Shown here: positions 24,917 through 30,900 of the stretch, piece after piece
Numbering within the stretch: the stretch's first letter is position 1
How the letters are laid out: each line of letters opens with the position of its first letter
NCBI GenBank assembly: GCA_051294905.1
Contig: CM119372.1
Span: forward strand, 33,172,001 to 33,236,000
Source of the DNA: Botryllus schlosseri
Taxonomy: Eukaryota
Reading direction: 5' to 3'
Length of the DNA: 64,000 nucleotides
Position numbers and translations under genes: made by a program
Notes under the pieces: generated by a model
What the model saw: the letters and a program-made list of their open reading frames with translations, nothing else
Database searches by the model: none
What the model was told of the DNA's origin: nothing

Positions 24917-27900
24917 CTGTGACGCAATCAGGAAAAATTAAGGTCGAAACTGCTATCGAATAAGAAAGCCATAGTAGGATAGGCACATGAAAGATGTGCA
25001 AAACTTATCCCAGATCTTATTCCAAAAACCATTTCGCATTCTATTCCTACTGTGTCTCGCAAAGGAGTGATGTGATTACTCTAGCCCCAACTCCTGTTTC
25101 AAACCATATCACGCAGACAACATACCTTCCACGAAAACGCGAGCCAGGTACTTCAATATTTCGTCAATCAAAATAACAGGCAGAGACATGTACAGCACCA
25201 TGCTCCATTCAGCACAGTTCAGAGGACAGATTTGGAAGATGATCTGGAAAGGTCAAATGCAGTGTTATAGCATTATAGCAACTTGTGTTATTCACACACT
25301 GTGGGAAATACAAAGCATAGCGGCCATTTCACAACATCAAAGCATCAAGTCGCTCAAATCTTGGCTTTCCAAAGAGCAGAATTAACATTTTTAGCTCCAG
25401 CTGCATTATTCACGAAACGTATCCCTTTCCACTTACCGGTAGCGGGTCGACGTACAGAATCATGAAGTGAAGCAGCATCGACAAAACGATGGCGCCAATG
25501 AGCCACATGTTGCGCCACGGCGGCATCTTGAACAGGGACTGGTTTTCTGACACGCTGCAGCGAACAAAAATCAGACATGACAGCGTGAAAGGTACATCCA
25601 GACATAGAACTATGTAAAACTTCGACCAAATCTGTCAAACTAGTTTTAATTACTGTCTCCTCTTGATGTAGTTTCATGACATGTCTGGAAATCGGTGTTG
25701 GGTTGACTAGTGTCACCTTTTTCGCGTGACTTGACGTAGGATATCAGAAATGAGGATTGACTCGTGACTAGGAGCAAAATCCACTGGTCAATATCAAGTC
25801 ATCAAGTAATCGGTGCTGAGAAAAATCACTGCATCTTGCATATGTTTGAATCGTTTGCGAAACGCCGGTGTAACCCGTGAGAGCGACCAATCATTCAATG
25901 AACATGCGTTTTACTGAGCCGACACTGAACTGTCACAAATAGATTGACCGCAAACGAAATGAATTCGAATAAAGTTTTGGCGCTGGCTCGAATTGTGTCA
26001 CAAGAATATGTAGGAATGCATTGCATCTTATCAATTCGTCTCTCTATTCCATTGTCTTTATTTCGGTTGGTAAGTATCAACCAAGGCTATGCAAATTACT
26101 TGCGTAGTTTAGCAGTTCTACGTATATGCGAGCGATGCAACTCTATATTCGTTCATCGGTTCAAAATCAATGACCACTCAATCTGTATTTCAAACAGATA
26201 GCAAAATGCAATGACGCAGTCACACCCCATTCTTCGAAAAGTCAAGTCGACTTGAATTGTGACTTGACTCGAGTCACCTCGGAAATCCATTGACTCGACT
26301 CAAGTCAAAATGTACACTGTCTCGAAATGACTTGTGAAGAAGGTAGTGAAAGTGAGTTTATCTGCTGGAAATTGCCATTTCTACTTGGAAATTAACGATG
26401 AAACTTCTATTTCAGTACCCATGCTGAGTACTTCGGTCACTCCTTTGGGCAGTAGTTCTACAAAATTTCCAGCTTTTCCAAATTAGAGCAGAACTAGAAT
26501 TATAGCTACAGTTTTTTCCAAATTAGATTAGCATTATAGCTAGCCCATACAGTTTTAATAAATTTAGACTAATAAGAATTACTGCACTCGCAAAATTAGG
26601 AATTGAATAAGTTTCTAGACATTTGAGTCTGCTGTGGACATCACAAGACCACACCGTACCTGTTCAAAGCGTTGCACAGCTCGATAGTGACCAGGACAGA
26701 GAGCGCCATAGTCATGGGGTGCGGGTCCTCGAATATCTTGCAGTCGATTCCTTCAAAGTTGTCGGCGTCGGTCGTGCATGTCATGTAGTGAGTCTGGTGT
26801 GCACAAGTCCAAGGTTAGAGGTCATCACCACAATTTGTGAACCTTGAGTTTTTATTATATGCAGCATAGTTATATGGAATTATCAGAATCCAGAATTTTT
26901 CAACCGAACTTAGACCTGGTGACGCCCGCATAGATATGGAGTGTGACTAATATTGAACATCCTGTTATTTTAGGAAACGGAAATAACAGAATCATAATCA
27001 AAATCAAACGTGCATTGACACTGCGTTAGAGTCAACCGAACAACTCATCAGTGCCAGGAAACACAGCTTGAGGATACATATTATGGTTATCACTCAAATA
27101 CCCATATAAATGATGATATTCAACAACCTTGAGCCTAATTAGTCACACTCAAACCATTCCTTGGTTATAAGAAAACAGCTCGGCAACACCCATGCCCAAG
27201 CACAGCATTAGCCACCCTACAAGGAGGTATCTTGAGGACATTAAAAAAGGAATCCCCTAAATCAGTGCCAGGAAACACCGTTAAAAGGAAAATACAAAAT
27301 TTAATTTGTGAGAAGACACCCACCTTGCGGATATCCAACAACCAGAATATCAATTATTATTATGATTCCAGGACAACATTCTTAAAGCGGTATAACCCAC
27401 CTTGAAGTATACTACACACCGTATAAAAAGGTATGGTGAAACACACCCTAAAGACGTTATAAAATCCAACCACAAAACAGGGTGAAGCAACCTTACTGGT
27501 AAAGTAAATTACACCTATACTCGAATAGGGGTGGTACATTTTATCAATTAAATACTGAGGGACACTAAATTGCTCCAGTAATGCAAAACAGATGTATGTT
27601 ATTGTGTATAGCACAGTTGAGATCATCCTATAACAATTGCCCGCCCCATGTACTACGATAAACGAACAGTGGCATTCGCCCCACAACAGCGAATTACAGC
27701 ATAAGCTACGTTAAACAAATGAAGCAGTATGGAAGGAGACTGCCGAATTGCTCGTAGACGCTATCTGATTTTTCTGATTTCACCGTTCTACACAGCATCT
27801 CTGACCAAGTTATTGTACTGTCTGAAACAAAAATAAACTGATCCATGCACTAAAAGCGAGCCATGCACAGACACACATACTAACCAACTGCCACCACGAG

Positions 27901-30900
27901 GTCTTCGGCCCGTTGTCGGCATACATGAACCACCACGATGCAGCGGCGACTGTGGCAAACCCAACGTAAACTGAGATGGAAAGAAAACGGAAAAATGAAA
28001 GTGATCCGACACCCACGAACGATCGCAAATACCACAAGGAACGAGCAGAAACGTTGCGGCAGTTTGAAATAGGAATGAGAATGTAACTCAAAATCTACCG
28101 AAGGTCTTTGCTAACAATGATCAATCGTGGCCATAAAAGAGACCAAATGATCATAGCTCATTCGTCATGATATAGGCCTAGATCCTGACGGCGAACATAT
28201 TTTTCATCATTGCCAGGAAATGTGATTTATAGGCTTCAATACAAAACCAACAGGCCACATTACAAACAACGTAAAAACACTACCGTAAATTCCTATTATT
28301 ATTGAAAAGTTCACACGAATTTCACACTTATGAAGGCGTATATGTATTGTTCTCAAAAACGGCATTATCTGATGACACAAGAGATGAGCGCAAACTACAT
28401 TCCAGGGATAAGAGTATGACGGCGTGCATCGCAAACTAGAAACCAAAATCAAACGAAACCGACACTGCCCCGGTCATGCTCGTGGCAAGCGACGGACGAC
28501 TTTTTGTCTTACCAGTTGCCACCAGCTCATTTGCGGGCCGGACTCCGCCGACACGAACCACCAACTGGCCGCGCCCACAGTGGCGCAACCAACGTACACT
28601 AGATTGAGAAGAGTTATGAGTGGGGAAAGCAATTTCTCGCGCGTGTGGAAATTTGTAGACAGTGTCAGTCCACTGAATAAGATGAGGTTAGATTTCAACT
28701 TGAAAAAATGAATTTTCATCCCAATTCACATATTTCGTAAAGCCCCATCAGGATTGGACAATGGCAAAGATCACAATGAAAGGACATGATGACAGAACGA
28801 ACAACAGTTGGGTGTGAATCCCGACAACATTCATAGAATCCAAGGGGTTGATACCAGGCTAATCCTAAAAATGTTGATAAATGAAGTCGATTGAACGTTT
28901 TCGAAAACCGAATCCTGTTACTGCCACAAATTCACTTCGCATAACACCAAAAACACAAGTCCATAGTAAGGCCAAGGGTGCATACTCTGATTCTGTATTC
29001 AGATTCAAGCGGGATAAGTGGAACCACAAAATGAATGGATTCTCGCGAAAAAATTTGTCGTTTTTTTAGTCAAAAAGTATTTTCAGGCCAAACTATGTGG
29101 GAAAACATTTATTTAACATACACGATGTCAAAATTTGGTCGAAATCAGGTACAAAGATGAAAAAAATTACAAAATTTTGATTTTTCAGGTCAAACTATTC
29201 CGTTTTTTAGATCCACACCTAACTTGAGATAGAAAGACCACTTCTTATTTGGTATAAGGGGAATGCAATATTTGTGTAGTTTCAGCTCTACATTGCCGCT
29301 AAAATTACACCGAAGAGAGGGGGAGGGTCATAACAATGTCATAATAGGAATAAAAAAACGTGACACTTTGCCAGCAGATGAAAACACTCACTTCCAATGA
29401 CGCAATACCGGAAAAGCAGCCATCCGCTGATCAGCGTGTCCTTGGTGGACCTCGGCTTTTTAGTCATGATATCCAAATCGGGCGGGTTGAAGCTGAGCGC
29501 GGTGGCGGGCAGACCGTCGGTGACCAAGTTGACCCACAGCAGCTGGACCGGGATCAGAGCCTCCGGGACACCGAGGGCGGCGGCCAGGAAAATACTGCAA
29601 CGGAATAGCATACGAGTAAATTTCTATGATGAAATAAACAATATTGATTAACCTATATCGAGAATTTCTGTTTCTTTATAATTTTCAGCCCATGTTTCAC
29701 CTAGTTTCTTGATATTGTATGTAATGCTGACGAGAAAGTTTGCGTTGTTTGAGATCAGACAAACTATGGACCGCTTACGCTAGATAGGAAAAAACCGTGG
29801 CATAACTCGGCGACCAGCAAAAATCGTGGACACCAGACTATATATCCGGATGATATCATAAAGTTAGTTAGTCCGGGAGAATAGTAATCGCCTAATTAAA
29901 AACTATTAACGAGGCAACCTACATGGCTCATTAAAAGGTTCACCAGACCACTCGGGATAATCCTTGCCCGAAATCTAATCCAAATTCATGCACCGCGATT
30001 AACAGTTTATAATTAAACTATCAGCATTGACCCGGATTAGCTAACATCACGATCGCAGCCCGTTTGAGTTGACACGACGTTTTCTTTTACGAGCAAATCC
30101 CACATCTCTCTCCTATTCATAAACCCAATAGTTTCGTCTGACACTCATCGGTGACTAGTGGAGAATTCAAAACAATTCTACATCAAAATCTGCATCCCTA
30201 AATCACCAAAGCTAAGCACGAGTGACTCACCACACGACTTCGCCGATGTTGGAAGAAATGAGATATCTGATGAACTGTTTCATGTTGTTGTAAATGGCGC
30301 GACCCTCTTCGACTGCGGCCACGATGGAAGTGAAGTTGTCGTCTGCCAGCACCATTTCCGAAGCCGACTTTGCCACAGCGGTGCCGCTGCCCATCGCGAT
30401 TCCGATCTCCGCTTTTTTCAAAGCTGGTGCGTCGTTGACTCCGTCCCCGGTCTGGTGACATCAAAAGCGACCGATTAGAGACAGAAAGCATTGGATTCAA
30501 GCTAACCGGAACGACCTAGATTTACACTCAAGCCGACACAGGGTTAGTAGTAGAAACGCGAAACCATGTCCTTTTGAAAGTCGTATTATCAGCGTTGCAC
30601 GCTACCAATTAGCGAGAAGTGTGTTGCCGATTAGCAAGATTCGCCTGTGCACAATGTAACGCGATCTACCGTTGAGATTATTGCAAAATGAGACCATCGA
30701 TTGTCATGTGCTCGGCAATCGTCGCTGGCCTGATTTATCGCGTCTCCGACAAGCCTAGGCCTAGTTCTGCTGGCTTGAAGAATTGCATCTGCAATAGGCC
30801 TGGTTCGCATTATACCATCGAAGGCCTTCACAATCACATCTGCATTGGCCTGGCTATCATGATATCATCACTGGCTTGCAGAATAGCTGGCCTAACTATT

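Follow-up and report, generated by a model that had tools for sequence, protein, structure and literature searches.

In this report, we focus on a 64,000-nucleotide (nt) stretch of the genome of Botryllus schlosseri (NCBI GenBank assembly GCA_051294905.1, contig CM119372.1, positions 33,172,001 to 33,236,000 of the forward strand), hereafter the window, and in particular on a duplicated exon of the SERCA-type calcium pump gene that it contains. The source assembly comprises 495.5 Mb in 219 contigs, and the G+C content of the window is approximately 40%. The gene is intron-rich and is read on the minus strand from about 53446 to about 24700, with 22 coding exon positions whose introns all have AG/GT boundaries. 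Its product has 1002 amino acids (aa) with either of the two copies of exon 18, designated 18A and 18B. Exon bounds were obtained by tblastn, for which the genome's two intronless SERCA paralogs and the Styela clava ortholog served as queries, and the splice sites were refined against the ortholog. TIGR01116 (SERCA-type) was the best family for the exon pieces, ahead of the PMR1, PMCA, and Na,K types, reaching 114.7 bits for the exon 15 piece (next family 86.2) and 102.6 bits for the exon 17 piece (next 40.3); against the same model, orthologs from Styela reach 1170 and 1171 bits (cut-off 703.4). The Pfam families E1-E2_ATPase, Hydrolase/HAD, and Cation_ATPase_C are also matched by exon pieces, and the DKTGT phosphorylation motif is found in exon 10. 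These family comparisons confirm the predicted product as a SERCA-type Ca2+ pump (P-type ATPase IIA). The gene groups with two Styela clava genes and Molgula tectiformis in a tree of whole proteins, with 86% identity to Styela, the host being a stolidobranch ascidian whose closest named relative is Styela clava.

Each copy of exon 18 encodes a block of 29 residues, which we take, on the usual SERCA helix assignment, to comprise most of the membrane helix M7, the WW pair at the luminal interface, and the start of the loop L7-8. The first-pass annotation of this DNA had described two intact 86-nt exons with canonical splice sites and identical phase, a frameshift upon inclusion of both or neither, and flanking introns without similarity. 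All of this was reproduced, including the two peptides exactly as given there and the numbering, the block being number 18 of the 22 coding exon positions. The acceptor of 18A ends in CAATCTAG and its donor reads GTAAGA, and the acceptor of 18B ends in CCATCTCAG, with a GTTAGT donor; the phase is the same, exon 17 supplying one base of the first codon. The copies are identical at 57 of 86 nt (66%) and 20 of 29 aa. Because each exon is 86 nt long, joining both or omitting both shifts the frame, and scripted splicing of these two arrangements gave early stops. With the genome's own intronless SERCA paralog as the tblastn query, the two exons match at E-values of 4e-9 and 5e-10, well outside what chance would give. 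Seven block queries from other species match these two places only (E at most 1e-9; next best E at least 0.06), no third copy of exon 18 being found in the window, and the introns around 18A and 18B have only short repeats of at most 23 nt in common. The exons are neighbouring, equal in length, similar, in the same frame, and provided with usable sites, which are the sequence criteria for mutually exclusive exons (MXEs) set out by Hatje et al. 2017 (PMC5740500). We consider it very probable that 18A and 18B form a tandem-duplicated, mutually exclusive exon pair of SERCA, each productive mRNA carrying exactly one of them. The chance that an assembly artefact or collapsed haplotypes mimic a duplicate exon is negligible. 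No support for it was found, and it is opposed by the limited DNA identity of the copies and their unrelated flanks, by the presence of both block types in Styela clava isoforms of one gene, and by contigs of two transcriptome-like sets (X1 and X19, described below), which extend over the introns flanking both exons and show few differences there.

Table 1. Positions of the SERCA gene and of the exons and intron surrounding the duplicated exon 18, in window coordinates
Feature	Coordinates	Strand	Evidence
SERCA (P-type ATPase IIA) gene	24700..53446	-	tblastn, splice-refined model, TIGR01116, Pfam
Exon 17 (M6 region to start of M7; ends in RYCVIG plus one base)	29392..29594	-	Donor GTGAGT; RNA-contig joint 29594>30231 to exon 16
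Exon 18A (A-type M7/L7-8 block, 86 nt, 29 residues)	28513..28598	-	Sequence, splice sites
Intron between 18A and 18B (542 nt)	27971..28512	-	Sequence
Exon 18B (B-type M7/L7-8 block, 86 nt, 29 residues)	27885..27970	-	Sequence, RNA-contig joints
Exon 19 (remaining L7-8 loop with two cysteines, and M8)	26660..26793	-	RNA-contig joints to 18B and exon 20

The same exchange of blocks, hereafter the M7 switch, is found in relatives. Tunicate SERCAs were gathered with exon 19 as the query, and isoform sets were taken from clusters at 90% identity. The block was located in 120 of 122 proteins, one of which, isoform X2 of Styela clava, has an A-type block close to 18A. Isoforms X1 and X2 of Styela clava (XP_039274640.1 and XP_039274641.1), both of 1004 aa, show 10 differences, at positions 846-867. 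In Ciona intestinalis (RefSeq isoform accessions XP_078491536.1/XP_078491537.1 and XP_009861042.3/XP_009861043.3), 17 differences separate X1 from X2 and likewise X3 from X4, at positions 839-867, and an older pair differs at 18 positions within the same range; the corresponding count for X1 and X2 of Clavelina lepadiformis (XP_076815494.1 and XP_076815495.1) is 15, again within 839-867. The ranges of difference in these three species are the exact span of exon 18. Thus the ascidian RefSeq models already contain equal-length pairs that differ in the very 29-residue block studied here, and the Styela blocks are its direct counterparts: 18A is identical to the X2 block at 24 of 29 residues and 18B to the X1 block of the same gene at 24 of 29, with 24-26 of 29 residues shared between 18B and the Styela and Molgula B blocks. 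Two further tunicate taxa have uninterrupted open reading frames (ORFs) of 1001 aa on contigs of 4-5 kb, with 18 and 14 differences within positions 837-865, and because such contigs are most simply spliced mRNAs, both forms are probably present as RNA in these taxa. Isoform pairs differing inside the block alone were found in all five tunicate taxa for which the clusters examined contained two or more isoforms. Judged from these alignments, conservation of the M7 switch, also in five other tunicates, is well supported.

Two other pairs from a marine catalogue (P0061/P0058 and P0075/P0076), with differences near M7, were dropped as isoform pairs owing to 35-53 mismatches that are spread elsewhere too. 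As separate features of these genes, the SERCAs of Ciona and Clavelina (P0135/P0138 and P0037/P0132) have alternative C-terminal tails as well (1029/1030 versus 1003 aa), and all four combinations of M7 block and tail are annotated in Ciona. In Styela clava, the switch gene is accompanied by a further SERCA gene of the intron type, with 90% identity (906/1002), for which the B-type form alone is on record; the Botryllus genome has a single intron-type SERCA gene.

Both copies of the exon bear the marks of purifying selection, as first proposed from their intact state. Across the 28 whole codons, 18A and 18B differ at 6, 7, and 15 sites of codon positions 1, 2, and 3, respectively, corresponding to a proportion of synonymous differences (pS) of 0.764, which is saturated, and a proportion of nonsynonymous differences (pN) of 0.219. 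Neutral substitution to an equal nucleotide distance yields a mean of 17 amino acid changes, whereas 8 were observed; a count of 8 or lower did not arise in any of 20,000 simulations, of which only 26% were free of stops. Saturated pS against low pN, together with the 24 of 29 matches to Styela, implies that both copies have been kept by selection, this lineage included.

Use of the exons in RNA was assessed over positions 24500-30600 with the contig sets X1 and X19, which are transcriptome-like (their RNA nature is a guess), and with the raw RNA-seq runs X22 and X24, splice joints being taken from the best 15 of 18 joints over the four runs. The two joints of 18B, 27970>29392 and 26793>27885, have depths of 168.8 and 273.4 in X1 and of 7.65 and 7.22 in X19, and the depth of the 18B bin is 112.4 in X1 and 27.1 in X19. 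18B is the major exon in the RNA examined, and inclusion of 18A in X1 amounts to at most a few percent.

Several observations limit the case for the use of both exons in this animal. No 18A joint is present among the best 15 of 18 joints of the four runs, and the two bins of 18A have depths of 4.35 and 2.67 in X1 and of 4.52 and 5.54 in X19, with neighbouring intron bins as high. The runs X22 and X24 gave 319 and 73 placed reads, nearly all on an intronic repeat at 25724-26540; their coverage of the SERCA gene, at about 1x or less, is uninformative. A protein search with 40-aa in-frame pieces, in which three of eight candidates matched for 18A (insects among them) and one of one for 18B (Styela clava), failed to recover the Botryllus SERCA itself, whether with 18A or with 18B; since the own protein is missing in both forms, the blank for 18A protein is uninformative. 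Finally, the RefSeq isoforms of the relatives are computed models. Because only 18B joints were seen and 18A lies at intron-level depth, we infer rather than observe the use of 18A in Botryllus. Of the transcript junctions that the first-pass annotation proposed to check, those of 18B with exons 17 and 19 are seen in both X1 and X19, and those of 18A are absent from the best 15 of 18 joints. The broader proposal that one gene yields two pumps differing in M7 and the start of L7-8 is upheld by the relatives and by selection, with 18A use in Botryllus as its inferred component.

These RNA results would be expected if 18A were an intact relic, that is, an alternative exon of an ancestor that is no longer spliced here, leaving only 18B in use. 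The presence of 18B junctions alone among the joints considered and the intron-level depth of 18A in X1 and X19 fit this explanation, as does the acceptor tract of 18A, which is interrupted by purines. However, we regard it as unlikely: 18A is free of stops and indels, its AG and GTAAGA sites are intact, and pN is far below pS. Its match to the Styela counterpart equals that of 18B, at a whole-protein identity of 86%, which argues for continued constraint, and contig sets readily miss minor exons of limited tissue range. Under the preferred reading of a mutually exclusive pair, 18A would be the minor form, subject to regulation and presumably confined to a particular tissue or stage.

How the two exons exclude each other can be considered from the gene itself. 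Steric exclusion was ruled out, as the 542-nt intron between the copies is too long. Docking/selector RNA pairing was sought across 26660-29594 without a convincing candidate, the best inverted repeats being 20 nt (80%) and 14 nt (86%) long, with approximately 1.5 expected by chance (an estimate). The simplest means of enforcing exclusivity would be the reading frame, in that mRNAs with both exons or neither would be non-productive and presumably removed by nonsense-mediated decay. The same premature stops would also allow the pair to serve mainly as a dosage switch, in which regulated double inclusion or skipping produces mRNA prone to decay, the difference between the A and B proteins being of subordinate importance; joining reads were recorded for many frame-shifting MXE clusters by Hatje et al. 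2017 (PMC5740500). Nevertheless, this option seems highly improbable. Neither an A-to-B joint (28513>27970) nor a skipping joint (29392>26793) is present among the best 15 of 18, although contigs can miss rare forms, and the amino acids of both exons are under strong purifying selection, with class-specific residues kept across six taxa.

The surroundings of the two exons differ in their splicing signals. 18B has a long, strong pyrimidine tract and a weak GTTAGT donor, whereas 18A has a weaker acceptor, with its broken tract, and a consensus GTAAGA donor. Two UGCAUG elements lie 18 and 36 nt downstream of the 18B donor, at 27867-27862 and 27849-27844 on the minus strand. TGCATG occurs 11 times on the 28.9-kb gene strand, and only the 18B pair falls within 100 nt downstream of any exon; the fraction of intron shuffles with at least two GCATG in the first 60 nt was 0.0007 (20,000 shuffles, post hoc). 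The intron that follows 18A has a single AGCAUG at +34 (position 28479). Rbfox enhancers classically consist of UGCAUG located downstream of the exon, and the pair at 27844..27867 (minus strand) may be regarded as a candidate Rbfox-type splicing enhancer. As a hypothesis, a muscle-driven 18B together with a minor non-muscle 18A would agree with the predominance of 18B in bulk RNA. An Atp2a gene of Ciona, which may or may not be the switch gene, is reported to be expressed in the tail muscle and papilla cells of larvae (PMC7397655).

In SERCA1a numbering, the exon 18 block is equivalent to residues 842-870; counted from the YVG tyrosine, it aligns to residues 843-870 of SERCA1a and 842-869 of SERCA2 in solved structures. 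The motifs YVG, ATV, WW, GP, and WQL form a core common to 18A and 18B, and nine positions differ; exon 19 supplies the two luminal cysteines, which do not vary. Three of the nine differences fall at block positions 1, 5, and 9, which, being spaced four apart, would lie on one side of the helix. Two positions separate the classes throughout. Position 5 (SERCA1a 846) is C, T, or S in all six A or alternative blocks and F, I, M, or V in all ten B blocks, that is, small and polar in the A type and bulky and hydrophobic in the B type. Position 17 (SERCA1a 858) is S or A in six of six A or alternative blocks and Y or F in ten of ten B blocks, and the same contrast exists between Tyr858 of SERCA1 and the Ala of SERCA2.

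The first-pass annotation had further suggested that 18B is closer to SERCA1 and 18A to SERCA2. The direction of this claim holds, and the likeness turns on very few residues and is weak: 18A scores 33.9 bits against SERCA2 and 29.2 against SERCA1, and 18B scores 30.0 against SERCA1 and 29.5 against SERCA2. Automatic NCBI names switch between '1-like' and '2-like' with the block in all six Ciona isoform records, with no such switch in Styela or Clavelina. Given that a small residue at position 17 also occurs in a tardigrade sequence and in one further sequence, the resemblance to SERCA1 and SERCA2 is likely to reflect convergence. As to function, exchanging the A and B blocks would likely either tune the kinetics of the pump or alter the docking of membrane or luminal partners at the M7/L7-8 face. 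The equivalent surface is where the beta subunit attaches in the Na,K-ATPase, and in SERCA2b the extra helix and tail are located close to this face.

The origin of the alternative blocks is less uniform than their position suggests. In a tree of the 29-column block, 18A pairs with the Styela A block (support 95/89), with the B blocks together as the sister group of this pair (81/80). A separate group (86/87) comprises the alternative blocks from Ciona, Clavelina, and the two further taxa; it clusters with blocks belonging to the second or intronless SERCA paralogs (81/87), apart from 18A. The alternative blocks of Ciona and Clavelina are also much more divergent, with 14-15 of 29 residues identical to 18A. 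Forcing all alternative blocks together gave p-AU 0.136 on these 29 columns, by which a single origin is neither shown nor rejected. Grouping with the paralogs could possibly reflect retrocopies made from alternative-isoform mRNA, or gene conversion. The Botryllus genome contains two such intronless paralogs, both full-length SERCA genes, whose open frames span 1004 and 1010 aa; they are located on contig C13 (L005:2851-5862, plus strand) and contig C7 (L006:2379-5408, minus strand). The C13-type paralog has close counterparts in Styela clava, in a cluster of six 1000-aa proteins, as well as in transcript contigs. Both intronless genes look like old retrocopies that have remained functional.

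A more far-reaching scenario, to which we assign a low probability, would make the M7 switch an old chordate device that predates the split between tunicates and vertebrates. In this scenario, 18B, with its SERCA1-like Tyr/Phe and UGCAUG/Rbfox control, would supply the muscle pump, and 18A, with its SERCA2-like Ser/Ala, the general pump; vertebrates would have split the switch into paralogs after genome duplication, and the alternative mRNA would have seeded the intronless paralogs of tunicates.

Compared with known SERCA systems, the proposed pair changes a different part of the protein. Vertebrates have three SERCA paralogs (ATP2A1-3), none of which is known to carry more than one copy of the M7/L7-8 exon, and diversify them by 3'-end splicing (SERCA1a/b, 2a/b, and 3a-f). 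Thus, in vertebrates the block difference lies between separate genes and the C-terminus is spliced, whereas in the ascidian one gene swaps an internal membrane helix. The vertebrate isoforms show tissue-specific use and different kinetics, and in Artemia and C. elegans one SERCA gene gives rise to more than one pump by C-terminal splicing, as described in the sections available of Altshuler et al. 2012 (PMC3527596). Such splicing alters the tail, while the ascidian switch alters a core membrane helix. The same sections treat canonical isoforms only, and the invertebrate splicing that they mention is exclusively C-terminal.

Tandem exons of equal size that swap a single transmembrane segment are known from other protein families, namely exons 8/8a of CaV1.2 (segment IS6) and exons 5a/5b of sodium channels (accessible portions of PMC3060452 and PMC12772994). 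For these channels, regulation (by PTB and others) and physiology have been worked out, in contrast to the SERCA pair, which is known from sequence and RNA contigs. According to Hatje et al. 2017 (PMC5740500), MXE clusters mostly consist of one ubiquitous exon plus regulated ones, and frame-shifting pairs are common. The RNA criterion applied there is bridging junction reads for every exon of a cluster, which the SERCA pair has for 18B only, and the main text of that study mentions neither ATP2A nor SERCA. Full-text searches, which left most subscription journals uncovered, retrieved no published description of an alternative M7 exon in any SERCA. The switch is therefore apparently new to print, as first supposed, yet not new to databases, where the RefSeq isoform models of three ascidians already carry it.

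The residues that set SERCA kinetics are hard to tell from vertebrates because the differences there are spread over whole paralogs. The tunicate pairs would provide natural pumps identical but for 9 residues in Botryllus and 10-18 in its relatives, all in M7 and the start of L7-8, and the class-specific residues kept in six tunicate taxa offer a clean and testable handle on a little-studied face of the pump. They also point to an invertebrate chordate using splicing where vertebrates use paralogs, and gene models of tunicate SERCAs should include both exons.

Several further features of the locus deserve mention. An 18-nt microexon at 52496-52513 (minus strand), with AG/GT boundaries and the phase kept, encodes ELPAEE between exons 1 and 3; it was missed by tblastn and spotted by reading the sequence. 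Intron 5 (41504-50793, minus strand) is 9.3 kb long, and the remaining introns measure 62-1663 nt. At the 3' end of the gene, the RNA contigs show one structure, with joints 25243>25437 and 24916>25126. The repeat at 25724-26540, in the intron between exons 19 and 20, reaches a summed contig depth of up to 8857 over tens of contigs; in each of the four runs, it shows joints that go back as well as loose ends of the TGACTTGACT type. The element is dispersed and transcribed and does not belong to the SERCA mRNA. A 767-aa open frame at 16138-18441, on the plus strand and thus opposite to SERCA, lies downstream of the pump gene; it ends in a CAMSAP CKK microtubule-binding domain (E 9e-45) and probably represents the large terminal exon of a CAMSAP/patronin gene.

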